A stretch of 64,000 nt of DNA from Candidatus Kapaibacterium sp. (GTDB lineage Bacteria > Patescibacteriota > Patescibacteriia > UBA9934). This document shows, piece after piece, positions 10,345-27,291 of this stretch (positions are counted from its first letter, which is position 1; every line of letters begins with the position of its first letter). The position numbers and the translations under genes are program-made. The notes beneath the pieces were generated by a model. That model was not told the origin of the DNA. It saw nothing but the letters and a program-made list of their open reading frames with translations, and did not search any database. The DNA lies in NCBI GenBank assembly GCA_044350705.1, contig JBILHA010000002.1, positions 178,295 through 242,294 of the forward strand, read 5' to 3'.

Positions 10345-10908
10345 TTGTTCAGGAATGCTATACTGTGTATATCTATGGAGGATACTGAGCTGCAACAATC
10401 ACCCACTGCCGCCGATCAATCTTCTGAAGCAATCGATGCAGGAGATATTTTGCTTGCATGGGAGAGTTGGGAGTATCCCCCTATTGAACGTTCAGGAAAG
10501 TGGTACGCCGTCGCAACAAGCCTTGGACTCTTCTGTCTCATTTATGCCATGTTTACCGCGAATTACATTTTTGCGGTTATTGTGGTCATGTTCGCCATCA
10601 TTATCATGATGCGAGACATAAAAAAACCGGCCCGTTTCCAAACGTACATCACCACAGAAGGCGTAGTTTTTGGTGATCGCCTCTATTCCTTTAAAGAGAT
10701 TCGGGATTTTTCTATTACATACGATCCTCCTGAGGTAAAAAATCTTTACCTCACATTCAACTCTTCCTTGCAGCCCATGCTTTCCATTCCCCTTGAGGAT
10801 GCGAATCCCAACCTGGTTCGCGCCGCTCTTTTGCCGTTTGTCTATGAAAACCTGGCACGGGATGGAGAAACCTTGACGGATACCCTTCGTCGCGTGTATA
10901 AATTGTAG
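10345..10908 (+). CDS. Hypothetical membrane protein (2 TM)
   Basis: 187-aa ORF with a central hydrophobic hairpin (FCLIYAMFTANYIFAVIVVMFAIIIMM). The alternative start MEDTEL is at 10375. Confidence 0.45.
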   Translation: MFRNAILCISMEDTELQQSPTAADQSSEAIDAGDILLAWESWEYPPIERSGKWYAVATSLGLFCLIYAMFTANYIFAVIVVMFAIIIMMRDIKKPARFQTYITTEGVVFGDRLYSFKEIRDFSITYDPPEVKNLYLTFNSSLQPMLSIPLEDANPNLVRAALLPFVYENLARDGETLTDTLRRVYKL

Positions 10909-11067: not shown

Positions 11068-11144
11068 GCGCTCGTAGCTCAGTTGGATAGAGCATCAGCT
11101 TGCGGAGCTGAGGGTCGCACGTTCGAGTCGTGCCGAGCGCACCA
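11068..11144 (+). tRNA. tRNA-Arg (anticodon read as GCG), 77 nt, CCA encoded
   Basis: Acceptor GCGCTCG/CGAGCGC, D-arm GCTCAGTTGGATAGAGC (Arg-like), anticodon stem TCAGC/GCTGA with loop TTGCGGA, T-arm GCACGTTCGAGTCGTGC, and a 3' ACCA. Confidence 0.85.
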
Positions 11145-11177: not shown

Positions 11178-11996
11178 TTATCTTTTTCTTATGAGCGCCG
11201 TCACTCCAAACAGGAGAAGAGATACGAGCACGATGGTCGCTCCCGTGGGAGTATCCACAAGCGCCGATGCAAAGAGCCCTCCGATCACCGCGGTCACTCC
11301 ATACCCTACCCCTATCCCCATGGTGTGCCAGAACCCCTTTCTCCACATATTTGCCGCGAGTACCGGTATTACCAGCAACGCGCTCACCAAGAGCGCTCCT
11401 ACGACTCGCATGCCCACTGCAACAACCAGCGCAGAGAGCATGATAAACAGCGCCTCGTATCGCTCAATAGGGAGCCCTTGCACTTTCGCTAAACGTGCGT
11501 CAGCGGTTGCAAGAAAGAATATCCCTCTCCCGACATACAGTACGCTTCCCACCACTCCAAGCACTGCCCCGATTGAGCACACATCGCCCCACGTTACGGT
11601 CGTGATGCTTCCAAACAAATAGGAGAGTACCTGGGCATTCCAGGAACCGGTTACGCTTAATAGCACCACGGCAAATGCTAAGCTTCCTGAAAGGACCAAT
11701 GCAAGCGCAGCATCTCCTGAGAGTTTCGCATGTCTTCTGAGCCATTCCATTCCTATCGCGGCTCCTAGTGTTGCCGCCATCGCCGCCCAAACGCTTTGGA
11801 TGCCCAGCACCACTCCGAGCGCCACCCCCGCAAGCGAGGCGTGCGCTAACGTATCTGAGAAAAATGCTTGGCGACGTGCGACAAAAAATATCCCAATGAG
11901 AGGTGCGAGTATTCCCATCATAATTCCCGCAAGCAATGCTCGCTGAAAAAAGGCGTATCCAAAGAGTTCAATAAGCATACTAGTGATGATGGGCAT
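11178..11996 (-). CDS. znuB: Metal (Zn/Mn) ABC transporter permease (ABC-3 / ZnuB family)
   Basis: 272 aa, 8-9 TM, with the ABC-3 signature region and clustering with znuC/znuA. Confidence 0.85.
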   Translation of the reverse strand: MPIITSMLIELFGYAFFQRALLAGIMMGILAPLIGIFFVARRQAFFSDTLAHASLAGVALGVVLGIQSVWAAMAATLGAAIGMEWLRRHAKLSGDAALALVLSGSLAFAVVLLSVTGSWNAQVLSYLFGSITTVTWGDVCSIGAVLGVVGSVLYVGRGIFFLATADARLAKVQGLPIERYEALFIMLSALVVAVGMRVVGALLVSALLVIPVLAANMWRKGFWHTMGIGVGYGVTAVIGGLFASALVDTPTGATIVLVSLLLFGVTALIRKR

Positions 11997-13254
11997 GTCC
12001 TTCTTCTTCTACCCGGATAATTCCTTTGCCGTATGCCCATGCGGCAAGTGCGGTCGCCACTGGCACTGCGAGCATAAGCGCAGATCCACCAATGAGTGCA
12101 CGGAGCATTTCTTCGGTCAGCGACTCCCCGTTGAGTAAAACCCACAGTGGCGGGTTATCCGGGAGCGAGAAGAGCAGGAAAAGAGGAAATGACGCTCCTA
12201 CATATGCGAGTGCGAGCGTGTTTACGAGAGCTGCAATATGCTCTCGTCCAACTACCAGCCCTCGTACATACAACTCCTTTACGTCGAGTGAGTGATTTGC
12301 GCGATAGATCTGTTCTACTGCTGCAACTTGTGCGGTCGTAACGTCGTCCAAAACACCCAGCGCACCAATCACCAAGCCTCCGAGGAGGAGTCCGCGTAGA
12401 TCAAGCGATTGTAAATACCCCATCTGCAAGAAGAGCGCCTCTTCCGTACTTGCTCCCGAAAGCATCGCCCAAAAAACCGTTGCATATGCCAATCCAAACG
12501 CGAGGAGCAGCACAAACATGGTGGCAGAAAATGCGAGGAGTGTTCTCTTTTTTAATCCGTGTGCCAAAAACAATGATGTCGTCGCGATTGCAATAGCCCC
12601 CAGCGCGCTAATCACGATGGGATTGTCCCCTGCCATGATACGGGGCGCGATAAATGCTACAAGTACAATAAGCGATACTCCAAGGCCCACCAGTGACATT
12701 ACTCCTCTCCACTTGCCAAGTACTACGGCGAGTCCTCCAAAGACCAATGCCAACGCAATGACCACAGGAAGCCGGAATTGATCGAGAATATAGTACGCCG
12801 TCCCACGAGCATCGGTGGTTTGCACGAGCACGACCGGATCTCCTTTTTCGAGACGCACCTGTGCAAATCCGATCGTTGAGGAACGATACTCGATCGTCTC
12901 TACCTCTCCCGCTTCTTCTCCTGAGGCAATCTTTACTAAGACGAGCTGATAGCTTTCCTCGAGACCGCCGAGGTTATTTTTTCCTTCCTCAACAATACTT
13001 ATCACCTCTCCGAGCACATACTTGTTTGGAATATATTCTCCTACCGGATGGCTCACCATCATCTCGCCGTCTTCTGCAGGCACAAGTTCCGCCTCTTGCG
13101 CAAAAACGACTTGTATCCCTGAAAAAGATAAGACGCAAAGTATCAGCGAAACAAGCAGTGGGCGGAGAAGCAACCGGACCGATGAGAACAGAAAAACACC
13201 GAAATACCAATGTGCCTTCTTAATGCATGTGAGGATGATCCGCATAGGAGCCAT
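11980..13254 (-). CDS. YibE/F-family integral membrane protein with a C-terminal His tail, embedded in the znu operon
   Basis: YibE/F-like TM core (…GALGVLDDVTTAQ…); N-terminal signal plus an extracytoplasmic domain. The C-terminus is ...EEEGHAHHH. Confidence 0.65.
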   Translation of the reverse strand: MAPMRIILTCIKKAHWYFGVFLFSSVRLLLRPLLVSLILCVLSFSGIQVVFAQEAELVPAEDGEMMVSHPVGEYIPNKYVLGEVISIVEEGKNNLGGLEESYQLVLVKIASGEEAGEVETIEYRSSTIGFAQVRLEKGDPVVLVQTTDARGTAYYILDQFRLPVVIALALVFGGLAVVLGKWRGVMSLVGLGVSLIVLVAFIAPRIMAGDNPIVISALGAIAIATTSLFLAHGLKKRTLLAFSATMFVLLLAFGLAYATVFWAMLSGASTEEALFLQMGYLQSLDLRGLLLGGLVIGALGVLDDVTTAQVAAVEQIYRANHSLDVKELYVRGLVVGREHIAALVNTLALAYVGASFPLFLLFSLPDNPPLWVLLNGESLTEEMLRALIGGSALMLAVPVATALAAWAYGKGIIRVEEEGHAHHH

Positions 13255-13921
13255 GACTTACGATTCTCTTATTAAGACAGAGCACACGCGTTGCTTCGCG
13301 CTCAACTGCGTGAAGGTCATGAGAGACCATAAGAATAGTCATATGCGTACGCCGGTGCAATTCACGCAGTACATCGTAGAGCGTCTGCTGTTGGTACTCA
13401 TCTACTGCGGACATCGGTTCATCAAGAACGAGTATACGTGGCTCTCCCGCTAATGCTCGTGCGAGAAAAGCTCGCTGGCGTTCTCCTCCGGAAATCTCTC
13501 CGATTCTTCTTTTCGCAAGGTGGGATATACCGCACGTTTCCATCGCCTTTTCAATACGCACCACATCATGCGCTCGTGGGCCTTGATACCACTTTCTCAA
13601 TGCCACCCGTCCACTTGCAACCATTTCCTCCACGGTTGCGGGAAAAAGTGGATCAAAAGACGCCGCATGCTGAGGGACATATCCCACTTGATGGCGCAAT
13701 TCTCTCCCTTCCCACTCAATCTTTCCCGCCGTTTGGCGCTCAAGACCGAGGAGGATATTCAAGAGCGTCGTCTTTCCTCCCCCATTTGGACCAATAATTC
13801 CTACATACTCTCCTTCTTTGATCGAAAAAGAAACATCTTCAAGAACGACGAAATCACCCCGCGTAAATTGCACGTGGGAAACCGTGAGTAATTCGTGTGA
13901 CCGCTTCGCTACGGTTGACAT
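13220..13921 (-). CDS. znuC: Metal ABC transporter ATP-binding protein (ZnuC-like)
   Basis: Walker A GPNGGGKTT, ABC signature LSGGERQR and Walker B ILVLDEP. Confidence 0.85.
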   Translation of the reverse strand: MSTVAKRSHELLTVSHVQFTRGDFVVLEDVSFSIKEGEYVGIIGPNGGGKTTLLNILLGLERQTAGKIEWEGRELRHQVGYVPQHAASFDPLFPATVEEMVASGRVALRKWYQGPRAHDVVRIEKAMETCGISHLAKRRIGEISGGERQRAFLARALAGEPRILVLDEPMSAVDEYQQQTLYDVLRELHRRTHMTILMVSHDLHAVEREATRVLCLNKRIVSHGSYADHPHMH

Positions 13922-14886
13922 GAGAGTGCTTGCGCAAGTGCGTGAAGATTCTTTCGCATAATGGAAGTATACCCTTCTCCTGCGGCAATTTGCTCTTCCG
14001 TACGGCCTTCAAGGGTGTACAACACATCTACCGATGCGCCAATTTCCTGGGCGATTGTTTCTGCCAGCGCCGTACTTGCGGGAGACTCGAAGAATACCGT
14101 CGTCACTCCTAATTCCTTTGCTTCTTCAATGAGTTTTGCCATATTTTTGACCGATGGTTCCGCCTCGGGAGAAATTCCTGCCACGGCATGTATCGCGATG
14201 TTGTACCGAAGTTCCCAATACCGGAATGCGTCATGCGCCACCAAAACATTGCTTTGTTCGCACGTACGCAATGTTTCAGAAAAATCCGCATCTAATGCCG
14301 CGAGCTCCTCTCGCAGCTTTTGCATTTCATGCGCATACCGCTCGGCATGTGCAGGATCTTTCTCGATGAGCGCTTCGGCGATCGCGCGCACCATTTCTTG
14401 TGCTCGCGCACTATCAAGCCAGGCGTGGGGATCTTGCGCGCCTTCATGCCCGTGCCCGTGCTCTTCTTCCTCCTCTTCATGCCCCTCTTCTTCATGTCCC
14501 TCCTCTTCTCCTGCCAGAAAGGGTACAACGTCGCTCATGCGCACCACTTTTATTCCCGCAGCTTCTGCATCGGGAAGGAGATTTTCTGCCCACGCGTCTA
14601 AACCTCCGCCATTGAGGAGCACCACGTCAGCACTTAAAAAATGTGCGATATCCTGGGGAGATGGCTCATATTCATGCACCTCAACTCCATCAGGCGTTAT
14701 TTGTCGTACCGATACATATTCTTCGCCTATTTCTTGAGCAAAGTCCGCCAAAGGGAAAAACGTTGCCACTACTTCGATCTGGTTCTTTGGGGTATTCCCT
14801 CTTTCACCCCTTCCCAAATACCATCCTCCTGCAAGCAGTGCGCTCACAAGTAGCAGGCCCCCTATTCCATACATCCATTTTTGCAT
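13909..14886 (-). CDS. znuA: Metal ABC transporter substrate-binding protein (ZnuA-like) with a His/Glu-rich loop
   Basis: Cluster-9 SBP fold motifs and the acidic His-rich insert EEEGHEEEGHEEEEEEHGHGHEG typical of zinc-specific ZnuA. The start is taken at MQKWMYGIGGLLLVSA (signal/anchor). Confidence 0.8.
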   Translation of the reverse strand: MQKWMYGIGGLLLVSALLAGGWYLGRGERGNTPKNQIEVVATFFPLADFAQEIGEEYVSVRQITPDGVEVHEYEPSPQDIAHFLSADVVLLNGGGLDAWAENLLPDAEAAGIKVVRMSDVVPFLAGEEEGHEEEGHEEEEEEHGHGHEGAQDPHAWLDSARAQEMVRAIAEALIEKDPAHAERYAHEMQKLREELAALDADFSETLRTCEQSNVLVAHDAFRYWELRYNIAIHAVAGISPEAEPSVKNMAKLIEEAKELGVTTVFFESPASTALAETIAQEIGASVDVLYTLEGRTEEQIAAGEGYTSIMRKNLHALAQALSCQP

Positions 14887-14902
14887 ATTTTTTGCAAAAA
14901 TA

Positions 14903-15556
14903 TCATGCATCGTTTCCATATGCAAGGGTGCATGCGTATACCCGGGAAACCCCCGCTTGTCTGAGAACGTCCGCACACGCTACGAGCGTACTTCCGGTCG
15001 TTGCAACATCATCTACGAGACAGACGCTCTTTGGCACCTTGTCTTGCGGCCTTAACACACTCATGTAGGGATTCTTCTCACGCACCTCTCCCCGATCCTC
15101 TTTTTTTGTTTTTGCCTGCGCCTTTTTTGGTACTCGTTTTAATCCCTCCACGACACTCCATCCTCCTTTTGTCGCGATGCTTTGGGCGAGCATCTCTGCC
15201 TGATTAAATCCACGCTCTGCATACGCTTCTCTTGCCAGGGGAACGGGGATCAGGACTGTTTCTTTATCAAGAAAAAACATCTCTCCCTCTTGCATCCACT
15301 TTTGCCACCATTTTCCCGCCTCTTCATCGCCGCGATATTTCCACGCATGGAGCATTTTTTGTACCGCCGGCTCTTGATAAGAAACTCGTGAGAATATTTC
15401 TACCCCTTCGCATACCTTCTCACGATGCCAAGGAGGGAGCGTCACATTCTTTGCGCACCTTTGACAGAGAATCTCTCCTTCTTTCTTACAAACCACACAC
15501 GCCCTTGGAAAAAGGGCGTCCATGAGGAGGTGATAGATGGCTTTTAGTCTTGCCAT
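14903..15556 (-). CDS. comFC: ComF-family protein (ComFC; phosphoribosyltransferase-like competence protein)
   Basis: N-terminal 4-Cys zinc finger CVVCKK...CQRCAK and a C-terminal PRTase motif LVDDVATTGSTL. Confidence 0.75.
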   Translation of the reverse strand: MARLKAIYHLLMDALFPRACVVCKKEGEILCQRCAKNVTLPPWHREKVCEGVEIFSRVSYQEPAVQKMLHAWKYRGDEEAGKWWQKWMQEGEMFFLDKETVLIPVPLAREAYAERGFNQAEMLAQSIATKGGWSVVEGLKRVPKKAQAKTKKEDRGEVREKNPYMSVLRPQDKVPKSVCLVDDVATTGSTLVACADVLRQAGVSRVYACTLAYGNDA

Positions 15557-16116
15557 GTATAGGCATCTACCTTCCAAACCCCACCTTCTTGTACGAGCAC
15601 AACTTCAATCGCCTGATAACGAATTTCTTCATTTCCTGGGGATCCAAATGCCTCCTCACGCTGCGTTTGAACCATCAATGTCATGGATGTTTCTGTTTCT
15701 TGCGTGGCTTTCGCCCCGAGGCATGAGGTCGACACTCCATAATACCCGCCTTCTCCTCCCGGCTCTTGCGTGCGGGCTTGCTTTGCCTCTCGCTCCAGTT
15801 GGGCACTGAGTCGCGTGGTCACAAGGCCGAGTACATCATCAATATTTTGGAAGTCAGATTCAGAAGAATAACTTCCCACGCGCTCAACAAAGGTTCTTGC
15901 GACCGTTCCGGCAGAGACTTCTTGCGCTTTTGGCACATCCTCTGGATCATATGTTGGTTTTGGAGCAGGCGTGGTATTTGCCGCAGGAAGCGTCGTATTC
16001 TTCTCTTCTTCAATCTGTTGCGCGGTATTTTCCCGGGTCATCCAGAAAATAACTCCAAGCAACGCGAGGAGAATGACGACCGCTACACCGATTTCGATCA
16101 TGCGTTTTCTTTCCAT
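15544..16116 (-). CDS. Hypothetical bitopic membrane protein; candidate VirB8/PrgL-like T4SS component
   Basis: One N-terminal TM, a Pro/Thr-rich linker and a ~120-aa globular domain. Its position immediately downstream of VirB4 is the basis for the VirB8-like guess, which is positional only. Confidence 0.4.
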   Translation of the reverse strand: MERKRMIEIGVAVVILLALLGVIFWMTRENTAQQIEEEKNTTLPAANTTPAPKPTYDPEDVPKAQEVSAGTVARTFVERVGSYSSESDFQNIDDVLGLVTTRLSAQLEREAKQARTQEPGGEGGYYGVSTSCLGAKATQETETSMTLMVQTQREEAFGSPGNEEIRYQAIEVVLVQEGGVWKVDAYTWQD

Positions 16117-16125
16117 AAGAAATGA

Positions 16126-18048
16126 TTATGCTTGTTTTTGCTGCTCCGCGAGTGCGCGCTGATATTCTTCTCGCGCACGTTCCTGCTGCAGGATTTGCTC
16201 TGGATTTGTCGTCACAATTTGATCTTCCGTATATGACGCTACCACTTTAATCGCCGCATGCTTCTGTCCGGCGAAAAAGATCCCCTCCCCTACTGCTGCT
16301 TCGAGCAGAAGATACTTCTCACTTTGCGTGAGGTTAAACGTTCGCGCAACCAGATCCACGGCCGCAGGAGATTGTTTCAACAACATCTGGAGAGAAGAGT
16401 TGGTCACAATTGCTTGGCCGTATTGCGAAGTAAGGAAGTCGTTTACATCTTGCGTGATCGTCGTCACACCCAGGTAGTATTTTCGCGCGCGTTTTACGAG
16501 GGCAAAAATGAACTTTGCCGAATCTTCGTTTTGCATGAGCCACCACGCTTCATCAATCACCAACAAACGCTTTTTACGCTCCGAACGTACGACGTTCCAG
16601 ATGTAGTTTACGATGGTATAAATCGCCATGGGACGCAATTCATCTTCGAGGTCGCGTACGGAGAATACGACGAGCTGATTGCGCATTTGTACGGTTGTGG
16701 GAGAGTTCAGCAATCCCGAGAATGTTCCTGACACGTATTTCTGAATACGCGCAACAAGATTCTCCGCCCCCTGCATTCCCTCAAGGATTTGCATGAGGTC
16801 ATCAAGAATAGGATACGCTGCCACTCCTGCAAGCGAAGGAAGGTCAGGAGTAATATCTTTCTTTGCATACGCCTCCAAAAGTGCGCGATCGAGTACGCTA
16901 TCTTCTTCAGGGGTAAAGCCAAGCGTTCCCTTTTCTCCCATGGGCTTCCCGATCATGATGCGAAGCAGTCCCTTGAGCGTAATCACCGCGCTACGCAAGA
17001 TATCGTCTACCGAACTCTCTTCCCCCTTAGGGCGAGGAAGATCAAAAGGATTGATTTTTGCTTCAGACGCCAAGGAAACGTTTACGAATGTTCCGCCTAC
17101 GGCATCGGATAGCTGGCGATATTCCATTTCGGGGTCAATAACAATAACGTCCGTTCCCATCATGAGCGAACGGAGAATTTCGAGCTTTACCGTATAGCTT
17201 TTTCCCGCACCTGATGTTGCAAAGACGACCGAGTTTGCATTCTGCAGAGAAAAACGATCGAATAAAATGAGCGAGTTGTTGTGCCGATTAATTCCGTACA
17301 GGATGCCGTTATCGCTCGATACATCTGAGGAAATAAAGGGAAATGAAGATGCAATCGGTGACGTGTTCATGTTAAACGTAATCATGAGCTCGTCATTGCA
17401 TTCGGGAAGCGTGGAATTAAACCCTTGTTCTGATTGGTAGAATCCTCGCTTCGTGTAAATGAGTTTCGTGCCGAAAATTGCTTCGATTTCTTCAGTGCGT
17501 TTATCTAAATCCTCCTGATTTTTTCCGTATACGGTAACGTAGAAAGCAAACTGGAAAAAGTGCTCGATTCCTTGTGTCAGATCATCACGAAGTTGCTCAA
17601 TATCGCGCAGTGCGGTTTCCTGGATAGGATCACGAGGCTTTCCACTTTCATGATCCGCAACAATTTGCGCTTCGGTAATACCCACTTTGTCACGCAACTG
17701 TTTTAAAATGATTTCTGGTCGGATCGGATAAAAATACATGCCAATATCGATCGTCCCTTTGTAATTGATAATCGGCGCTCCCCATCCTATTCCTACGTAG
17801 CGAGGATAGGTGGTCACAAAAAGCGTACGCAAATACTGATCTCCAAGACGGAGGAAGTTTGGCTGCACTTCAAACGCTGCCGGCGCAATCAGGTCACGGA
17901 TGGATACGGTTCCCCGGCGATAGACACGCTCTTCTTCAAGCGTTGCGCGCTCTTCAGCTAACTTCTGCTCTTGAGGGGACAGTTTCTTTGGAGCAACTGC
18001 AATCTTCTGTGCCTGCTGCCTTTTGAGGTCTTCAATATTAAATGCCAT
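16126..18048 (-). CDS. VirB4/TraC/PrgJ-family T4SS ATPase, C-terminal ATPase portion (split gene)
   Basis: Walker A ATSGAGKSYT, VirB4-type Walker B LLVIDEAWWLM, and RKYYLGVTTITQ (the motif following Walker B). Confidence 0.85.
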   Translation of the reverse strand: MAFNIEDLKRQQAQKIAVAPKKLSPQEQKLAEERATLEEERVYRRGTVSIRDLIAPAAFEVQPNFLRLGDQYLRTLFVTTYPRYVGIGWGAPIINYKGTIDIGMYFYPIRPEIILKQLRDKVGITEAQIVADHESGKPRDPIQETALRDIEQLRDDLTQGIEHFFQFAFYVTVYGKNQEDLDKRTEEIEAIFGTKLIYTKRGFYQSEQGFNSTLPECNDELMITFNMNTSPIASSFPFISSDVSSDNGILYGINRHNNSLILFDRFSLQNANSVVFATSGAGKSYTVKLEILRSLMMGTDVIVIDPEMEYRQLSDAVGGTFVNVSLASEAKINPFDLPRPKGEESSVDDILRSAVITLKGLLRIMIGKPMGEKGTLGFTPEEDSVLDRALLEAYAKKDITPDLPSLAGVAAYPILDDLMQILEGMQGAENLVARIQKYVSGTFSGLLNSPTTVQMRNQLVVFSVRDLEDELRPMAIYTIVNYIWNVVRSERKKRLLVIDEAWWLMQNEDSAKFIFALVKRARKYYLGVTTITQDVNDFLTSQYGQAIVTNSSLQMLLKQSPAAVDLVARTFNLTQSEKYLLLEAAVGEGIFFAGQKHAAIKVVASYTEDQIVTTNPEQILQQERAREEYQRALAEQQKQA

Positions 18049-18052
18049 ATCT

Positions 18053-18754
18053 TTACGTCAGCTTGGTTTCTACGTGGAGCTTTCCAATTGCCTCAAGCGG
18101 CTGCGTTTCTCCCACCTCAGGATTATACGAGTTGTAGTAGAGCTCAATGAGTCCCTGCGTATCCAATTGCGCCACAGATAACCCCATGCTCTCTAATCCT
18201 CCTGCAATGAGCTGCGTTCGTTGCGTGATGGCATACCTCCTATCCTCGAATTGCTTCGCGTTGAGTTTCACGATAGATGCGGGATAAATAGCATTTTGCA
18301 GCTTTACAAAGAAGCCTTTTCCCTTTTCGTTGCCTTCACTGGCATCATACGGTACGACCACAAAAAAACGCTTCTGCATGATTTCTCCTAAATCTACAAG
18401 CTCTTTGATAAAGGAGGTATAGTCTCGAATTTGCGTTTTGAGGAGTTCGTTACTTATCCCTTCCTCTTGTGCCTTTAGACGCGCGAGATATCCATCGATA
18501 TTCATTTTCCTCGATTGGATGCATACCTGCAGAGGATGGTCGAGGCTGTTTAAAAATTGCATGTAGCCCTGGATGACTGCTTGCTGCTCGTCTTCGCTTT
18601 TGAGCGCAAAGTTAATGCTCGATACCATGAGCACCATGCGCATGGTTCCATCTTTCATCACTACCACGTTTTCTCGGATTTCAGCGATGTCCAAATAACG
18701 CTGGGTAGGAGGTCCAGCCTTTGGCCTTGCGAGTGCATTTCTTTGGTCTGCCAT
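18053..18754 (-). CDS. VirB4/PrgJ N-terminal domain encoded as a separate ORF
   Basis: 233 aa ending 4 nt before the ATPase ORF (TAA-AGAT-ATG, different frame). The segment YLDIAEIRENVVVMKDGTMRMVLMVSSINFALKSEDEQQAVIQGYMQFLNSL matches the conserved N-terminal region of Gram-positive VirB4 (PrgJ/TcpF-like) from memory. The summed length of 873 aa equals a full-length VirB4. Confidence 0.6.
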   Translation of the reverse strand: MADQRNALARPKAGPPTQRYLDIAEIRENVVVMKDGTMRMVLMVSSINFALKSEDEQQAVIQGYMQFLNSLDHPLQVCIQSRKMNIDGYLARLKAQEEGISNELLKTQIRDYTSFIKELVDLGEIMQKRFFVVVPYDASEGNEKGKGFFVKLQNAIYPASIVKLNAKQFEDRRYAITQRTQLIAGGLESMGLSVAQLDTQGLIELYYNSYNPEVGETQPLEAIGKLHVETKLT

Positions 18755-18757
18755 ACT

Positions 18758-19213
18758 TTATACCTGAGGGGGAAGTTCATCGTCGCCCTTGTAGACACCG
18801 CCGGTATTTACGATGAGCGTGAGCTCCGAAAGACGGGAGGATTCAAGGGGTGCTTTTCTTAGTTTTTCAGGCGGCTTTTCTTCCTCCACCTTTTTTAAAT
18901 ACACGCGAAGATCCGTATCAGAGAGCGTTTTATCCCACACTCTTTTTGCGGGCTTTTTAATATACTGCAGGAGGTTGAGCACGATATAGTGCAGTGGCTG
19001 GCCATTTACTTTTCCAAAAGCAAACGCTCCTCCGAGTGCGGCGATCGGGATACCAACCGCGAGCATGGGAAGCAGGCTCAAGAAAATGCGGTAGACTAAA
19101 AACTCTGCCACGATTACCCCTACCATGATGAGAAATTGGCGAAGCGTAATCGGGCCAATGATTTTTGGCTCTACATCAAGAAATTGCGGAACGACAAACT
19201 GGGATCGCGACAT
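18758..19213 (-). CDS. PrgI-like (VirB3-like) small membrane protein
   Basis: 151 aa with the N-terminal motif ...VPQFLDVEPKIIGPITLRQF... followed by two TM helices. It lies immediately upstream of VirB4, as in Gram-positive T4SS loci. Confidence 0.5.
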   Translation of the reverse strand: MSRSQFVVPQFLDVEPKIIGPITLRQFLIMVGVIVAEFLVYRIFLSLLPMLAVGIPIAALGGAFAFGKVNGQPLHYIVLNLLQYIKKPAKRVWDKTLSDTDLRVYLKKVEEEKPPEKLRKAPLESSRLSELTLIVNTGGVYKGDDELPPQV

Positions 19214-19230
19214 GCAGGAAGTATAGCAGA

Positions 19231-20982
19231 TTAGAACCGCGTTTTTTCATTCCAACGTGCTAATGCTTGCATCTCTGCAGGGCCCAGACTTTCCTGTCCC
19301 TGCGATCTTCGCCGTGCGGCAATTTCTGCAACCGCGACACCCGTATTCAGCGACTCTCCCATGAGTGTTACGTACAGGGTTGCAAGTGGACTCTTGCGCC
19401 ATGCGAGCACACCCCGTACCCGATCTTCGTAACTCGTTTTTTGTAATGACAAGAGCAGTGCTTCCATTTTTCTCACGGCTTCATCTGGATTTGTAGAAAG
19501 TCGTCGGAAGTCCGCGAGCGTCATGGTTCCTAACTGTTCAACAGGACCCATGAGCTTGTTTCCTGAGACGATATCCGTCACCTTTTTGGGTACGCCATTC
19601 TCCTGTACAGGAGCGACGCTTCCTACCGTTAACTCGACGACTGCTGGTGCAGGCTTTTGAGATTGCTTCGTGAGGGATGCAAATTTTTCCTCGGTTTTCT
19701 TTGCCTCCTGCTCTTCCCAGGCCTGCGCGTCTTCGTCAGTAATCTCAACGCGCACATCCTCTACACGCTTCAGCGCATCTCCCGCCACACGGTACGCATC
19801 TTGTGCCTGCAAGAGCGCCTGCATGAGGAGAGAAAGCTGCTCGCCTTTCACTTTATAGTCGCGTTCAAGAATATCGCGTGTTTGATACTGATCGCGAATA
19901 CCGCGGAGCATTTTTCCAACGATATCTGCGAATGCTGCGGTAGGAATCTTTCCCTCATCCAGAATAGCCTTACTTTTTTCGAGCGCAATATCAATCGCCT
20001 CTGAGAAGGCGACTTTTATGGCTTCATCTTGATTTTTCTTCGCTTTTTCAGCTCTTTTTTTTGCAATCGCTTCAGGCTTCTCTTCAAGAAGTGCCGGCTC
20101 TGACACCCTGTCCTTTTGCAGCGGCAGCGCGATCGATGCACGCTCTGCTTTTTGTCCTTGCTGTCGTTGCTCCTCCTGAATAGGCGAGGAAATCACCGGC
20201 ACTTCTGCCGCCATTTCATGAGAAGGAGGGATTTCGAGTGCGGTCGTGAAGACTTTCTCCTCATTTTTTGAAGATTCCTCAAGAGGCAATTGCTCCTTGA
20301 CCAGCGCCCCACTCTCTTTTTCTTGAGCATCCGCGACAACTTGCTCTTTCATTTTTTGCTTTGCACGGAATTCCTCTTCAGATACAAGCCGAACGCTCCC
20401 AAGCCCCTCTTCTATTACCTGCAAAAGTGTGTCAATTTGCTCTTTTGCAAGCCCTAATCCTCCAATGGTCAGCGGCCTTCCAAAAAAAATCTTTAAACTT
20501 TCTCCTGTTTTTTGTCCGCTCATTCGCTGCTCGAGGAGAAACGCGAGACGCTTCAACAAGAGATCTGAAAATGTAAGTCCGGCTTGGGATACCACTCTTC
20601 TTGCAAAGCTCTCTGCATCAATCATCTCCTTTTCAATGCGCATCCCCTTTTCGTAAAGCGACACATCAGCCCCCCAAATACGAAGCTGTTCCTCTATTCC
20701 TGGGAAAAAATCTTCCAGAGGGAGAAGTCTCAGGGCTGATACTTCCACGGCAAGTTCCTGAGATCTTGCATCGGAAAGATCAAATGCCTCCTTGAGGAGC
20801 CCGGGCACCTCTGCAAGAGGAATCTGCTCATCAAGGACAGCGTCCGTTAGATCAAGCAATTCTCCCACCCTTTCCTCTGGAATTTGATACTTCTGTCCAA
20901 CATCAATAAGCGCATCATAAATGTCGCCATCTTGAAGAAAGTTCCTTGTCGCATCGATATTAAGTAGCGTCGCGAGCGACAT
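19231..20982 (-). CDS. Hypothetical soluble coiled-coil protein (583 aa) in the T4SS cluster
   Basis: Long ORF with no TM segments and Lys/Glu-rich predicted coiled coils. No recognisable catalytic motif. Confidence 0.5.
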   Translation of the reverse strand: MSLATLLNIDATRNFLQDGDIYDALIDVGQKYQIPEERVGELLDLTDAVLDEQIPLAEVPGLLKEAFDLSDARSQELAVEVSALRLLPLEDFFPGIEEQLRIWGADVSLYEKGMRIEKEMIDAESFARRVVSQAGLTFSDLLLKRLAFLLEQRMSGQKTGESLKIFFGRPLTIGGLGLAKEQIDTLLQVIEEGLGSVRLVSEEEFRAKQKMKEQVVADAQEKESGALVKEQLPLEESSKNEEKVFTTALEIPPSHEMAAEVPVISSPIQEEQRQQGQKAERASIALPLQKDRVSEPALLEEKPEAIAKKRAEKAKKNQDEAIKVAFSEAIDIALEKSKAILDEGKIPTAAFADIVGKMLRGIRDQYQTRDILERDYKVKGEQLSLLMQALLQAQDAYRVAGDALKRVEDVRVEITDEDAQAWEEQEAKKTEEKFASLTKQSQKPAPAVVELTVGSVAPVQENGVPKKVTDIVSGNKLMGPVEQLGTMTLADFRRLSTNPDEAVRKMEALLLSLQKTSYEDRVRGVLAWRKSPLATLYVTLMGESLNTGVAVAEIAARRRSQGQESLGPAEMQALARWNEKTRF

Positions 20983-20990
20983 ACGTTTGT

Positions 20991-23867
20991 CTAAGTCATG
21001 TATCTTTCAGCGGCATTGTACGAACTACGGAGTCCACGAAGGCGCTTTATCTCGTCCGCAGAACTTGCCGTCGTTTCATGCACGCGAAGTGCAGCGCCGA
21101 TGGTACTCATCGCATCTTTTATCGCTGCTTTTTTTCCTGCATCCGTTTCTTTTCTCATCATCTCCGCCAGCTTGTTGAAATCTTCCTTTGAAAGACCGTC
21201 CACAATCGTCTTTGAGAAGTCGTTTCTCGCACCTTTCACTACCGCATCGCGAATCGCATCCTGCATGTGCGCCACAGAAGAAGGGTCCGCTTTCATAAGT
21301 TGCTGCACCTTCATGCGCTCATCTCGTCCAATATTCATGGATGGGTTTGTTGCAGGATTTGTGTCAACGCCTGGAATAATATCGGGAATGGTTTTCCCTG
21401 CCCCCAGAAGCTTCTGACGAATTGCATTTGCATCATCAATACTAATTCTTCCTCCTGCAGCCTCCATTGCCGCGAGCTGTGCTTGGATTTGGCTTTGCGT
21501 TGCCGCATTCATTTTTGAGAAGTCTGCCTTCGATTGTGCGAGCGCCTGAATTGCTTTATCAGCGTTTGCATTTCTTGATGAATCGAACATGGCGTCATTC
21601 AGCTGTCCTTCGCTGACTTGGCCATTCTCAAACGCTCTGCCGATATTCTCTACACTCTGCGTCTGCATGACATTCGTCACAAACTGCTGCTGCACCGAAG
21701 CAGCAGTAACCCCCGGAGGTCGTCCTGCCTTTGCCGCAGCCTTTGCTTCAGCATCGATTTGTTCTTTTGCAAGATTACTTACATCTGTTTTTCCTTCAAT
21801 AATTGCCTGAATAACGCTTGCCTTGCCTACATCAGTCGTCGTTAAATGCGCAGACGCCTCTGTGGTCTTTGATCGACCATATGTTCCTCGATTCAATTCA
21901 TCGAGTTTACTGACCTTCTTTCCACTTTCATACTTTGATGTCGCTCGACCCATTGCGTTTAGAACAGTTTCATCAGCAGCAGCCTGTGAACGCAAAAGGC
22001 GTCCGTTGAAATCTTCTGAATCGATGAATTTTTCTGCCTTACTCTTATCTACCTTTGCATAGAGATCCGCATATTGTGATCGTGCCTTATTCCATGCTTC
22101 TTTATCTATTGGTCGGTCATGCTCATGTTTATCAAAGTCACTCAAGGTGCTCTGTACGATTTCATCAAACTTCTCTTTGCCCACCTCCTTTTCTAAGGCT
22201 TTTGCAAAATCCTTATTCGTAAATAATTCTCCCCGAAGCACCTTCGCATCGGCTAAAATGTCATTTGAAATAGCGCCCGTTCCTGTCGCGGACTTCATCA
22301 ATCGAGATACCCTTTGCGCATCGGTCATGTGTGAAACGCGATCCTTTGCTGCTTTTTTCTCCTTTTCATCAAAACCATGCAAACGTGCATCAATCGAAGA
22401 GCCCGCCGACAAGAGAAGATCTGAACCCGTCGCAGCTCCTGCGGCACTCACAATATTTCCTGCGCGTTTCGCAATTTTCTTACCTCCAATGAGCGAAGAT
22501 TCGAGAGGGCTTTCTGCCACCTGCAGTCCACGCGTAGCGACCCCAGCTGCTTTCTGCGTTAAGTTGCCCGTGCGTTGTAAGAAAGCGTTCAGCCGAGGGC
22601 TGCTCCCTGCGAACATATTGGACCTTCCCAACATTCCTCCCGCTTTTCCCGCCAATTGACTGCCAACTCTTGCCCCCGTAACAGGTAAAGCAAGGGCTCC
22701 TCCAGATATTTTCCTTCCCAGAGAAAGCGCGCGGCGACCGGTCTTTTCATTGAGCGCCATTGCGGCGAGGCCTCCCATTTTTGACGCGATTTTCGCCGAC
22801 TCACGGATACCCATGAGTAAGAAGACGATCGCAATAAGGAGACCGGTGAAGTTGGTGGATTCGAAAATTTCGAGCGTGATTTGTCCGTAGGTTGTACGTT
22901 CTTCTGGCTCTGGGAATGCCTCTGCCTTTGCGAGGTGACCGTTTGAAGATGCGGCAAGCGCCAAATACAAGAAAAATGCGAGCATCGGGCCAAGGATGAG
23001 CGGGGGGACAAATCCCTGCACCCATTCATTCCACACGCGACCCAACCACTTGATGATATCCATGGACCCCCAGGAGAATCCTGCGAAAGGCGCCATGATA
23101 AATGCAATCCAGAGCATGATGATGCGCCAGATGAACGCTACGGCAAGCAGCAAGATGACGATCATCACCGCTACCTGCACCATGAGTTTTACGTAGGCGT
23201 TTGCAATGTTCGATGCCAATGTCACCAGCGTAATTCCCGCCTCAGACGCTCCTTGAAAAGTCGCCGAAGAGTACGTGGTTGCTTGCGGCATGACCATGAG
23301 CTGCGCAAAGTTTCCGGCCGCAATACTCATGAGCGCGTTTACGAACGTCATCATGACGATTTGACTTGCGTCTACAGCAAGACCGCAGATGGTTCTACTA
23401 AAGTTTGCAAAAACGATACCTAAGAAGAATCGAGGAAGGTGTTGCTGCCAGGCGCTACTTCCCTGCCCAACCATCGTTTTTACCGCCAAAATCAAGAGCA
23501 CAATGACCGCAAACATGTTTACCATGTCGCGCGTGAGCGTCCATCCGAGTGTGACGATGCTTGAGCTTGAGAAATTGTTGTAACTGAGGACATTGACGAC
23601 GATCACCTCAATGATCACGAGCGTGAGCGAACCAATCGCATCACCGATGAAGTTGATAATCTGCGCGAGGACGTTTCCAATCCACATGACCAAGCTGTTC
23701 GCCCAGGTGGATTCCTCGGGAGTTTCATATGCGGCATGCGCGATATCTGGTACCACCGCATGCATAAGCATGCCCATGCCAACAAAAAGACCAAGCACAA
23801 GTGCCGTGGTCCCTACTTTACGGAACAACCGACGCATCCCTCCAAACATATGGGAATAGTGTAGCAC
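20991..23867 (-). CDS. Polytopic membrane protein with a long hydrophilic C-terminal extension; candidate VirB6/TcpH/PrgH-like T4SS channel component
   Basis: 958 aa with about 8 TM helices in the first ~400 aa, then a ~550-aa Ala/Lys-rich coiled-coil tail (TcpH-like architecture). The start is GTG at 23867 or ATG at 23849. Confidence 0.5.
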   Translation of the reverse strand: MLHYSHMFGGMRRLFRKVGTTALVLGLFVGMGMLMHAVVPDIAHAAYETPEESTWANSLVMWIGNVLAQIINFIGDAIGSLTLVIIEVIVVNVLSYNNFSSSSIVTLGWTLTRDMVNMFAVIVLLILAVKTMVGQGSSAWQQHLPRFFLGIVFANFSRTICGLAVDASQIVMMTFVNALMSIAAGNFAQLMVMPQATTYSSATFQGASEAGITLVTLASNIANAYVKLMVQVAVMIVILLLAVAFIWRIIMLWIAFIMAPFAGFSWGSMDIIKWLGRVWNEWVQGFVPPLILGPMLAFFLYLALAASSNGHLAKAEAFPEPEERTTYGQITLEIFESTNFTGLLIAIVFLLMGIRESAKIASKMGGLAAMALNEKTGRRALSLGRKISGGALALPVTGARVGSQLAGKAGGMLGRSNMFAGSSPRLNAFLQRTGNLTQKAAGVATRGLQVAESPLESSLIGGKKIAKRAGNIVSAAGAATGSDLLLSAGSSIDARLHGFDEKEKKAAKDRVSHMTDAQRVSRLMKSATGTGAISNDILADAKVLRGELFTNKDFAKALEKEVGKEKFDEIVQSTLSDFDKHEHDRPIDKEAWNKARSQYADLYAKVDKSKAEKFIDSEDFNGRLLRSQAAADETVLNAMGRATSKYESGKKVSKLDELNRGTYGRSKTTEASAHLTTTDVGKASVIQAIIEGKTDVSNLAKEQIDAEAKAAAKAGRPPGVTAASVQQQFVTNVMQTQSVENIGRAFENGQVSEGQLNDAMFDSSRNANADKAIQALAQSKADFSKMNAATQSQIQAQLAAMEAAGGRISIDDANAIRQKLLGAGKTIPDIIPGVDTNPATNPSMNIGRDERMKVQQLMKADPSSVAHMQDAIRDAVVKGARNDFSKTIVDGLSKEDFNKLAEMMRKETDAGKKAAIKDAMSTIGAALRVHETTASSADEIKRLRGLRSSYNAAERYMT

Positions 23868-24273: not shown

Positions 24274-26022
24274 TTATTCCTCGATCACGACCCGCAGTCC
24301 GCAGCCACTTGACGTGGGATCATCGGCGGCGACCACCGACTGCGCATGTCCGTTCCAGGTTGCAGCTACCGTTCCCTGGATGGTTCCGGGCGGAAACGGC
24401 CCCAGGCAGGACCAGCTTGTCGTACCAGAGATGACGTACTCCACCGAAAAGCGGAGTGCGTCGCCCGGTTCCATGACGCGACGGTAGGTGAGGTGGGAGG
24501 TATCTGACCCCTCCGCAAGCACCCCCACCCAGCTCCGCGGATCACCACCCGCGGGGGTGAACTCCCCCGAGAGGGTGATGCGGCTTGCCGTCGCCGCATC
24601 TGGCGTTGTCCAGGTGAGCACGAGCTCCCTCTCTTCCTCGATGTCGGTCTCCGCCGGTGCTTCTTCTTCCTCTTCCCGCGTTTCTTCTTCCTCAGGCGGA
24701 TCACCCGCGCTCTCGTAGGCTCCTCCCCCAACCGCAGCACCGCCGCAGGTGGTGATCAGAGACTCGGTGAGGCAGGAGATGCCCGTCGCACAGCTCCCGC
24801 GCACGGTCACGATGCTCTCGAACTCGCTCCGCTCCACTTCGAGCACCGTTCTTTCCCAGAACCCCATGAGCAGATAGACGCTCCACGTCTCGATGGGCAT
24901 CGCAACACCATCGCTCATGAGGTACACGTCGCTTGCATCGGCCGGAGAGATGAGGCTTCCATCGCGGTAGCGCGCGTTGCCGCTGTGCACCGGATAGTCG
25001 CCAAGATCGTCGGAGAGATCGGACGCCTGGAGCAGGTCATCGTACGTCGCGGCGCTCATGCCCCACGACTTCACAACCCCCTGCCAGCCGAGCGTACCGA
25101 TCTTCTGTCTCGCACGATACTCATCGCCGCGCGTTCCCATGAGAAGCCACACGCCGGTTCCGCCTTCGTCGTCGTACACCGCGCGCACTGCGGACGCATC
25201 TCTCAGGCTCTCGCCTTCTTCGAAGCAGGAAAGCTCCTCGGGGGAGACGAGCGCAACATGCGCGAAGTCGTAATTGCGGGAGGTGAAGGCGCTCTCGGTC
25301 ACGAACACGCGCCTCTTCCCTTCTTCGATGAGGTACACCGCGCTCTCGAAGGGCGTCTTCACGAGCGTGCCGTTCGGGTGCCAGCGCGGCACAGGAAGGG
25401 ACGACTCGTACCGATGACCGGACGTGAGATCGCAGATCATGCTCGTTACCGGCGTTGCCTGTGCCGGCGTTCCCCGCGTGGCATTGCGCGCGAAGAACTC
25501 GAGCCCCTCCTGCGAGATTCCCTGGACGCCGTCGTCCGCTGCATCTCCCCAGTGACGGCCGATATGCAGATGGTCTCCCGTGGAGTTCCCCGTCGTCCCT
25601 TCGATTGCGATGATCTGGCCCGCCACCACTTCGCTCCCATCCTCCACAAAGATGTCGGACAGGTGCGCGAGGATGATATAGGTACCGTCACCGAGATCGA
25701 TGTTGATGTGCAGACCGAAGTTCGTCGTCGAATTGCGGTCGTGCACGTACGCCACGCCCGCGACCGGCGCGTACACCAGATCGTCGGCGTCGTTGGGGGT
25801 GTCGAAGTCCACGTCGTAGCGCGTTGCGGTTCCCCGGTGGGAGTAGCTCCCTCCGGTCCCCTGGCTGCAGCGGTAGCTCTCCCCTTCGGCGAAGGGCAGA
25901 TGAACCGTCACCGCGTCACGCCCTCCCCCGCCGATTCCGGTGTCTTCAGGAATGCTCAGCGGCGGCAGCGGCGAACAGCTACAGAAAAAAAGTACGAGGA
26001 GCGCACAAATAATGAAGGTCAT
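24274..26022 (-). CDS. Secreted/lipoprotein M23-family metallopeptidase with a large C-terminal domain; high-GC gene
   Basis: Signal MTFIICALLVLFFCSCS. The M23 motifs are HRGTATRYDVDF and GNSTGDHLHIG (G-x-STG-x-HLH). An acidic linker PPEEEETREEEEEAP is present. GC is about 65% versus about 45% in flanking genes. Confidence 0.75.
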   Translation of the reverse strand: MTFIICALLVLFFCSCSPLPPLSIPEDTGIGGGGRDAVTVHLPFAEGESYRCSQGTGGSYSHRGTATRYDVDFDTPNDADDLVYAPVAGVAYVHDRNSTTNFGLHINIDLGDGTYIILAHLSDIFVEDGSEVVAGQIIAIEGTTGNSTGDHLHIGRHWGDAADDGVQGISQEGLEFFARNATRGTPAQATPVTSMICDLTSGHRYESSLPVPRWHPNGTLVKTPFESAVYLIEEGKRRVFVTESAFTSRNYDFAHVALVSPEELSCFEEGESLRDASAVRAVYDDEGGTGVWLLMGTRGDEYRARQKIGTLGWQGVVKSWGMSAATYDDLLQASDLSDDLGDYPVHSGNARYRDGSLISPADASDVYLMSDGVAMPIETWSVYLLMGFWERTVLEVERSEFESIVTVRGSCATGISCLTESLITTCGGAAVGGGAYESAGDPPEEEETREEEEEAPAETDIEEERELVLTWTTPDAATASRITLSGEFTPAGGDPRSWVGVLAEGSDTSHLTYRRVMEPGDALRFSVEYVISGTTSWSCLGPFPPGTIQGTVAATWNGHAQSVVAADDPTSSGCGLRVVIEE

Positions 26023-26651
26023 GGGCCGACGTCTCCGGAGATGAAACGATGATTCGTTTCTTTTCCCCTTGCAGAGGGAGTCCCAAAGGAACTGCAAGGG
26101 AAACCGGAGCGCAGCATATGCCCTGGGGTAAGGACTCCCCTCCTTACCCCTTTATTTATTAAGTATGGAATGCTGTTTGCCCGGCTGTCGTTTTGAAAGC
26201 GCGTTTTTTGGTACCCGCTTTCAGGGCGATCAGGCGCGCGTTTGTCATTCCTGCAGACACTCACGAACGTTCCTTCAAGGTCGTGCCCGAACTCGTCGGT
26301 CGTTCTGCTTCCATATCACCATAAAAAAAGAAGTCTTCAAGTAAAAACCTTTAAAAACTCTTCTCTTTTTTGCGCGTTTTCGTTTCTGGTATCTTTTTTT
26401 CTTTTCATTGTCAGAAAACAATGAACAGCTTTTTCGCAAAACATCTCTTTGAAGCGATGCGTTGTCCCCTCTCCAAAAACACCGTGGGAAAAGCTGTCAG
26501 GAGTGCAAAAACTGTGGATAACCTACAAAAAACACGCCCCTTGCAATGGGCGTGTTTCCTCTCTCTTGAAGCTCGCGTATACGCCCCTCCTGGCCTCCCC
26601 GATGGGGAGGATCTCGGTGGAAACTCCCCTGACTCACCCGAGACGCTTTCA

Positions 26652-27020
26652 TTACTTTCCCTGCAAACGCTTTACTTCTTCGTGAATACGCCCCACTACA
26701 CTTTCCACATCTTGAAATACTTCCTCATTCTTTATTCTCATCACGTGAAATCCCGCTCCTATGAGATAGGCCTCACGCTGCATGTCATAAATTCGATGTC
26801 CAAGTTTTTCATGAATTTTTCCATCGATTTCTATTACCAAACGGAGCGGCCAGAAACAAAAATCAACAATAAAAGGACCTATGCCGTGCTGCCTACGGCA
26901 CCTTACTCCGAGCGCATCGTGCGAAAGATGACACCAAATCACCCTTTCCGCCTGAGTCATCCGCTTTCTCAATTCTCTCCGTCGCTCTTTACTCCTCGCG
27001 GGATTGATGAGTCTTTTCAT
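26652..27020 (-). CDS. DUF559 endonuclease-domain protein (Vsr-like / PD-(D/E)XK fold)
   Basis: 122 aa with ...QAERVIWCHLS...GVRCRRQHGIGPFIVDFCFWPLRLVIEIDGKIHE..., matching the DUF559 pattern. Confidence 0.7.
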   Translation of the reverse strand: MKRLINPARSKERRRELRKRMTQAERVIWCHLSHDALGVRCRRQHGIGPFIVDFCFWPLRLVIEIDGKIHEKLGHRIYDMQREAYLIGAGFHVMRIKNEEVFQDVESVVGRIHEEVKRLQGK

Positions 27021-27291
27021 AGGCTTCCATCCTATCGCAACGCGCTTCTAAGAGTTTCCAAAGGAGCTTCCATACAAGTTTCCAAGCGCACTTCCAAGAA
27101 CCCCCCTCCGGGGGAGGGCTTGGGAGGGGGCCCGGACTCTCATATAAGCCTCTGCGTTTCCCTTTATTCCCACCAGAAATCCCCGCGTTTCCATGAGAAA
27201 TCCCTGCGTATCCTCGCAAAATTCCCTTCACTTGCCTCTTTTCCCCACCCCACCTTGACCCCCCTCATTTATCCACTCTTTTTCCCAAAAC

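Follow-up and report, generated by a model that had tools for sequence, protein, structure and literature searches.

The 64 000-nucleotide stretch of contig JBILHA010000002.1 analyzed here (the window) comes from a Candidatus Uhrbacteria genome, whose GTDB class we take to be ABY1, and carries a type IV secretion system (T4SS) locus on its minus strand at positions 14903–23867. We identify this locus, very likely, as the known chromosomal T4SS of Patescibacteria, also called the candidate phyla radiation (CPR), in the form found in ABY1. The system was described in 2023–2025 as typical of ultra-small Patescibacteria, and descends from the mating-pair-formation machinery of monoderm bacteria (MPF_FATA). 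An original prediction, made from the DNA sequence of the window, had proposed a monoderm-type, non-conjugative T4SS core of CPR linked to ComFC, and the components, their Patescibacteria relatives and the literature agree with it. The present analysis contributes a comparison of predicted structures by which VirB6 and VirB8 of an ABY1 locus are confidently assigned, and it points out that a conserved 583-aa component is without relatives of known function.

Components of the secretion system

Seven tightly packed open reading frames (ORFs) of 958, 583, 151, 233, 640, 190 and 224 amino acids (aa) make up the array. In transcription order, they encode an extended VirB6-like polytopic membrane protein (20991–23867), a soluble conserved protein, p583 (19231–20982), a PrgI/VirB3-like small membrane protein (18758–19213), a TrsD-like stand-alone VirB4 N-domain protein (18053–18754), a VirB4 ATPase of the MPF_FATA/CD1110 type (16126–18048), a VirB8-like bitopic protein (15544–16116) and a ComF of the ComFC type (14903–15577). 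A gene for an M23 metallopeptidase (24274–26097, minus strand), which belongs to the same module, lies upstream. All ORFs of the compact minus-strand array that had been predicted are present. The tight packing also holds, with gaps of 8, 17, 3, 4 and 9 nucleotides (nt) in transcription order followed by an overlap of the VirB8-like gene with comF, so that the range is 3–17 nt rather than the 4–18 nt first given. A sigma-70 scan upstream of the array, which is uninformative for CPR, found no promoter.

Relatives were collected by scanning one genome per species with the VirB4 gene. This gave more than 582 matches, and the best 80 were compared; all locus counts below for the series M23, VirB6, p583, PrgI, VirB4 N-domain, VirB4, VirB8 and ComF refer to these 80. 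The order M23, VirB6, p583, PrgI, TrsD, VirB4, VirB8, ComF is kept almost wherever the related contigs reach, in about 80 species. The median intergenic gaps in the related loci are 2.5–16 nt, and the VirB8-like gene mostly overlaps comF. The genes around the array are housekeeping genes (GroEL, release factor, KsgA, NusA, YidC and tRNA synthetases), which gives it a chromosomal context. Titled relatives are metagenome-assembled genomes (MAGs) of Candidatus Uhrbacteria, Magasanikbacteria, Falkowbacteria or the ‘Patescibacteria group’. The records of many related MAGs (L002, L005, L008, L009 and others) are titled ‘uncultured Gammaproteobacteria bacterium’; these carry the same Patescibacteria-type locus, with VirB4 70–85% identical, and the titles are apparently mislabelled.

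The 640-aa VirB4 scores 333 bits against the CD1110 family model NF045971 (cut-off 325) and matches the solved C-terminal domain of VirB4 (PDB 4AG5) with an E-value of 6e-47. Its P-loop reads ATSGAGKS and its Walker B motif LLVIDEAW. As a proxy for clade placement, the best 80 of the more than 582 VirB4 relatives are all from Patescibacteria MAGs, at 68–86% identity, while the nearest plasmid relatives come from Firmicutes and Actinobacteria and reach at most 37%. The VirB6-like protein and ComF are only about 30% identical in the same comparison. Because VirB4 is so much better conserved than these two proteins across candidate phyla, its sequence indicates a putatively working ATPase under strong purifying selection. 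The archaeal Ced DNA-import ATPases were also considered as relatives, and their models stayed far below their cut-offs (CedB, 45 bits versus 700; CedD, 22 versus 600).

Upstream of VirB4, the 233-aa protein matches the N-terminal regions only of the VirB4_plasma (E-value 1.3e-7) and CD1110 (2e-5) models in NCBIfam, and matches TrsD/TraD with an E-value of 1.1e-5. The two genes meet at the junction TAA-agat-ATG with a change of frame. They are separate ORFs in 80/80 loci, where each of the three stop codons and every frame relation occurs and the spacing varies, and the nearest Firmicute relative, which is carried by a Pontibacillus megaplasmid, shows the same two-gene layout. A pseudogenized VirB4 is ruled out by the separate ORFs with differing stops and spacings in all of these loci. 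The VirB4 predicted as an N-terminal ORF plus an ATPase ORF with a DEAW Walker B is thus the known TrsD + VirB4 two-gene arrangement. In one relative (L055:3087-4862), the PrgI/VirB3 and TrsD-like frames form a single 591-aa ORF, which is either a real VirB3–TrsD fusion or an assembly error.

The PrgI-like (VirB3) identity first proposed for the 151-aa protein was confirmed by a hidden Markov model search, with PF12666 at 36.6 bits against a gathering threshold of 27. Its hydrophobic segments at residues 18–36 and 43–61 correspond to two transmembrane helices, and it is 39–67% identical across the 80 loci. Single-sequence scans of the 958-, 583- and 190-aa proteins against Pfam and NCBIfam gave nothing significant. 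Structures were predicted for the 190- and 958-aa proteins and compared with known structures.

For the 190-aa protein, the prediction has a transmembrane helix at the N-terminus, joined by a linker to an NTF2-like domain. It matches DotI, the Bartonella and Agrobacterium VirB8 proteins, pKM101 TraE, IcmL-like proteins and TrwG, as well as R64 TraM, pIP501 TraH, CagV and pCF10 PrgL, with generic NTF2-fold proteins ranking below these VirB8-family structures. What had been a candidate VirB8-like bitopic protein is therefore borne out by structure comparison.

The 958-aa protein (948 aa in the public gene call, which starts 10 codons later) has a conserved transmembrane domain at about residues 60–365 and a large all-alpha C-terminal domain of about 450 residues (∼500–958). 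It belongs to a very large family, which counts 21,414 representative clusters at E ≤ 0.001. The TrbL/VirB6 Pfam signal is marginal: 4 of 46 family members touch the model, and the best score is 25.6 bits versus 25.9. Comparison of the predicted structure confirms its identity as VirB6. The specific resemblance to TcpH that had been proposed along with it did not hold, with a probability of 2.3% when a profile of 46 family sequences was aligned to pCW3 TcpH by hhalign. A tblastn search of the transmembrane domain against plasmids also found no match. Given the marginal TrbL/VirB6 sequence signal and the negative TcpH comparisons, the modelled protein is best described as an ‘extended VirB6’, as the 2025 nomenclature review uses the term, rather than as specifically TcpH-like. 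None of the pCW3 Tcp proteins, TcpF included, matched the window or the 80 loci by tblastn, a search that is uninformative on coupling proteins and relaxases since not even TcpF picked up VirB4, and window proteins reached 32 bits with the TcpF model (cut-off 1100) and 14.3 with TcpE (cut-off 29.9). A Tcp-type system like that of pCW3 was rejected on these results, and the system stands nearer to the CD1110 and TrsD/TrsE type.

The gene for p583 lies between those for VirB6 and VirB3 in 72–75 of the 80 loci. The protein, first described as a putative coiled-coil protein, consists of an N-terminal domain (residues 1–200), variable charged linkers and a conserved C-terminal domain (476–583), with no hydrophobic or transmembrane segment found. 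Neither the single sequence, nor a profile of 41 sequences, nor Pfam scans of the 41 members gave a match in Pfam, NCBIfam or PDB, and the homologues in a large protein database are exclusively unnamed Patescibacteria proteins. In the libraries searched, neither p583 nor the all-alpha domain at the C-terminus of VirB6 has a relative with a known function.

The M23 metallopeptidase (607 aa as the longest ORF, 582 aa in the public gene call) has an N-terminal membrane or lipoprotein anchor, matches PF01551 with 53.7 bits and has M23/LytM relatives in PDB. By tblastn, its gene immediately precedes that for the VirB6-like protein in about 45 of the 80 loci, and stricter clustering places it there in 28. 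From this position and the literature, it is the probable wall hydrolase of the T4SS, an enzyme that monoderm systems require, and a functional analogue of VirB1. At 62.9% GC, the gene stands out from the window (49.9%). Its orthologues (L001–L065) are GC-richer than their own loci in 28/28 species, by a median of 9.3 points (range +2.6 to +15.6). Foreign origin or recent transfer is ruled out by these GC-rich orthologues, and the high GC is a property of the gene itself.

ComF and the surrounding genes

ComF matches TIGR00201 over 189 of 190 model positions with an E-value of 6.4e-25; the score of 88 bits does not reach the curated cut-off of 233. The C-terminal phosphoribosyltransferase-like domain (Pribosyltran) scores above its Pfam threshold and DZR_2 just below (26.2 versus 27). 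The protein has an N-terminal four-cysteine zinc ribbon of the form CxxC...CxxC, CVVCKKEGEILCQRC, and a phosphoribosyl pyrophosphate (PRPP) loop, VCLVDDVATTGSTL, and the likely ATG start is at 15556. By tblastn, comF directly follows the VirB8-like gene in 73/80 loci, mostly overlapping it. The near full-length match, the zinc ribbon and PRPP loop, and this adjacency all support the predicted ComFC that is co-oriented with the T4SS.

The array had been thought to continue directly into a znuA-znuC-yibE/F-znuB series. These genes are indeed present on the minus strand (11178–14976), where Pfam and NCBIfam models identify a ZnuA-type binding protein, an ABC ATPase, a YibE/F membrane protein and an ABC-3 permease. 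The cassette is found 3′ of comF only in the 6–7 closest relatives (L001–L007). Since the linkage is not conserved beyond these, it is incidental, and the metal ABC transporter cassette is a neighbor and not a part of the T4SS. In the other relatives, comF is followed by one or two variable genes, a small PH-like membrane protein and RecG, with RadA on the other strand; RecG was found downstream of the T4SS, with RadA adjoining, in 18 related loci. The ABY1 arrangement is present in the window with comF adjacent and the RecG helicase gene (RecG_wedge, DEAD and Helicase_C domains) at 277–2349 of the minus strand, while radA is outside the window.

The tRNA-Arg(gcg) gene that had been named as one border of the array is at 11068–11144, beyond the metal-transporter genes. 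At 10345–10908 on the plus strand, a 187-aa protein has two transmembrane helices and a bacterial PH-like domain, with orthologues weakly matching DUF6232, DUF5673 and bPH_7. In 34/80 loci its gene comes one or two genes after comF, mostly before RecG. In the window it is inverted, and the znu cassette and tRNA-Arg lie between it and comF.

On the upstream side, the border had been described as a high-GC region with DUF559 and repeats. The DUF559 gene is confirmed (26652–27020, 99 bits), the high GC is mainly that of the M23 gene, and the repeats are only short. They comprise units of 12–21 nt at 27050–27230, with a 12-nt unit in three copies at 27053–27096 and a 21-nt unit in 2.7 copies at 27170–27227. 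These tandem repeats follow the DUF559 (Vsr-like endonuclease) gene and sit in a stretch without clear coding ORFs between the M23 gene and that of a giant secreted protein. The giant protein (3122 aa, 28440–37808, minus strand), encoded 4.5 kb upstream of the T4SS, is rich in cysteine and aspartate and has one CBM_4_9 module. In 5–7 related loci a partial homologue likewise lies upstream of the T4SS, and the protein may serve in host adhesion.

Relation to known type IV secretion systems

In the survey by Quinonero-Coronel et al. (2025; PMC12102498), VirB4 was reported in 2,417 of 3,035 Patescibacteria genomes, and 2,425 of 2,474 VirB4 homologues form a monophyletic Patescibacteria clade nested in MPF_FATA. 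TrsD-like genes adjoin virB4, and PrgI/VirB3 and VirB6 are present. The few VirB8 homologues are ‘nearly all’ from ABY1, some VirB1 homologues have M23 domains and relaxases are almost absent. ABY1 loci are also said there to commonly include comF, recG and radA, and in other classes VirB2-like pilin genes often lie close to virB4. In a 2025 FEMS review, the Patescibacteria systems form a new branch within the T4SS superfamily. The window locus resembles this clade (PMC12102498, PMC10633639) in being chromosomal, with an MPF_FATA-type VirB4, a separate TrsD-like gene, PrgI/VirB3, VirB6 and an M23-type hydrolase, in having no relaxase or coupling protein nearby, and in the ABY1-specific linkage to comF and recG. 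It differs from the T4SS of Saccharibacteria in that no VirB2-like pilin array adjoins it. A clear VirB8 also sets it apart from the locus of Southlakia epibionticum (SEML1_0006–0019), in which VirB8 was not detected. We did not find p583 among the T4SS components named for the Patescibacteria clade in the sections of PMC12102498 considered.

The same core of VirB3, VirB4 N-domain protein, VirB4, VirB6, VirB8 and wall hydrolase is common to the window locus and the MPF_FATA conjugation machines, which include TrsD-TrsE of pGO1/pSK41, TraD-TraE-TraH of pIP501, PrgI-PrgL of pCF10 and the integrative and conjugative elements (ICEs) of the Clostridioides difficile CD1110 type. Proteins of the array match TrsD, CD1110, PrgI, TraH and PrgL from these machines by sequence or structure. 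In contrast to them, the window locus is without relaxase, coupling protein, adhesin and mobile-element context, its VirB6 has the all-alpha C-terminal domain of about 450 residues, comF is in the operon, and VirB4 is at most 37% identical to plasmid proteins.

We also compared the array with minimal T4SSs resembling those of mycoplasma ICEs (Mbov_0395/0397) and with a cluster on the megaplasmid of Pontibacillus sp. ALD_SL1, whose VirB4 is the closest outside CPR in the plasmid collection (37% identity). The Pontibacillus cluster shares with the window the order polytopic protein, VirB3-like, TrsD-like and VirB4, with an adjoining M23 hydrolase. Unlike the window, it has two pilin-like genes and is without VirB8-like, p583-like and ComF genes. 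When the VirB6-like profile was aligned by hhalign to the polytopic protein from Pontibacillus, the result was not significant (17% probability). In the cluster (L083, NZ_CP062975.1, 351–361 kb), two Mbov_0395-type pilin-like genes are accompanied by genes for a polytopic protein of 779 aa, a VirB3/TraL-like and a TrsD-like protein, VirB4 and an M23/NlpC hydrolase of 1050 aa. The cluster lies beside flagellar genes on a replicon typed as non-mobilizable, with no relaxase annotated nearby.

The ComB system of Helicobacter pylori is a T4SS that has no relaxase or coupling protein and is functionally tied to the handling of incoming single-stranded DNA by ComFC. ComB differs from the window locus as a diderm VirB2–4, 6–10 system. 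The comFC gene of H. pylori is not known to be part of the comB operon, and we know of no evidence of common descent between ComB and the window system beyond the general T4SS core.

Possible functions of the locus

Domain scans of the window covered each ORF of at least 150 aa outside longer ORFs, plus several smaller ones. They found no relaxase, no coupling protein of the VirD4, TcpA or FtsK type and no VirB11 domain, in line with the absence of VirD4/TcpA, relaxase and VirB11 noted in the original prediction. No integrase was found in the 64 kb, and neither was a full conjugative gene set with a relaxase alongside the array. The T4SS locus is likely to be non-conjugative, because no relaxase or coupling protein is linked to it and because it is vertically inherited. 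The role in DNA uptake or cell contact suggested in the original prediction is plausible.

The explanation that we lean towards, by a modest degree, is a non-conjugative Patescibacteria T4SS that would move macromolecules between an epibiont and its host, with translocation of nucleic acids favored. From established T4SS biology, VirB3, VirB6 and VirB8 would form a translocon in the cytoplasmic membrane, on which the VirB4 ATPase and the separate TrsD-like N-domain protein would dock to power transport, and the M23 peptidase would open the peptidoglycan locally. Macromolecules would more likely be moved between epibiont and host cell than conjugated. The cargo would be single-stranded nucleic acid, most likely moving inward and handed to ComFC on the cytoplasmic side. 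Nucleic-acid translocation is favored because comF is tightly coupled to the operon in 73/80 species, with recG and radA nearby. A 2024 perspective (PMC11665869) proposed the T4SS as a route of nucleotide acquisition, with H. pylori ComB as precedent. Import of nucleic acids in ABY1, as suggested by this gene linkage, is nonetheless a tentative proposal that falls somewhat short of even odds. A fuller version of it is rather unlikely in all its parts. It holds that the ABY1 T4SS would be a monoderm import system for ComEC-independent competence or feeding, in which host DNA or RNA would pass through a VirB4-driven channel of VirB6, VirB8 and VirB3 to a co-translated ComFC and then to RadA and RecG, with p583 serving as an adaptor in the cytoplasm instead of a coupling protein.

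Several points weigh against these proposals. No small ORF with two transmembrane segments, as expected of a VirB2-like pilin, adjoins the array, though divergent pilins may be encoded elsewhere. In the transposon sequencing study of S. epibionticum (Wang et al., 2023; PMC10633639), the T4SS genes were essential on the host while this did not hold for ComEC, ComF and DprA. As ComF is dispensable in Saccharibacteria, where its gene is also unlinked to the T4SS, the linkage of comF in ABY1 could be operon hitch-hiking. The direction of transport, import included, is not readable from sequence. Coupling protein homologues are also frequent elsewhere in Patescibacteria genomes, far from virB4 (PMC12102498), and genes for a coupling protein or a relaxase could lie beyond the window.

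The frequent coupling protein homologues would fit conjugative export of DNA with a relaxase and coupling protein encoded elsewhere in the genome, as would the membership of VirB4 in the CD1110 conjugal-transfer family. We regard this as improbable, given that the same survey reports relaxases in just 103 of 3,035 Patescibacteria genomes, that the locus keeps a fixed place among housekeeping genes and is syntenic in about 80 species, and that integrase, relaxase and coupling protein are all absent from the 64 kb. Still less probable, to the point of being effectively refuted, is a decaying remnant of an ICE integrated beside tRNA-Arg, which the nearby tRNA gene and a VirB4 coding sequence broken into two ORFs of different frame might suggest. 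The two-gene layout occurs in 80/80 relatives and in a Firmicute relative within conserved synteny, VirB4 remains 68–86% conserved, and the znu cassette that separates tRNA-Arg from the T4SS is lacking in most relatives.

More weight belongs to export of proteins or effectors to the host, or a feeding channel for cargo other than nucleic acids, with ComF present through co-regulation or by accident, though we consider this, too, rather doubtful. Effector export is the leading speculation for Saccharibacteria, which have no relaxase or coupling proteins and can dispense with ComEC and ComF (PMC11665869, PMC10633639), and protein-exporting T4SSs without a coupling protein exist in Ptl and Brucella VirB. 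The giant surface protein with its carbohydrate-binding module is also encoded close upstream. Against this, comF is adjacent in 73/80 species, mostly in overlapping frames and with recG and radA close, which exceeds what is expected of an accidental neighbor, and the locus has no conserved genes that could be candidate effectors.

Few systems have been shown to be essential for the epibiotic life of Patescibacteria, and their T4SS is one of them. The window locus adds no new kind of system; it provides a clean ABY1 example in which VirB3, VirB4, VirB6 and VirB8 are all confidently assigned and comF lies within the operon. Because comF is built into the operon, ABY1 is a good lineage in which to test the idea that these T4SSs import nucleic acids.

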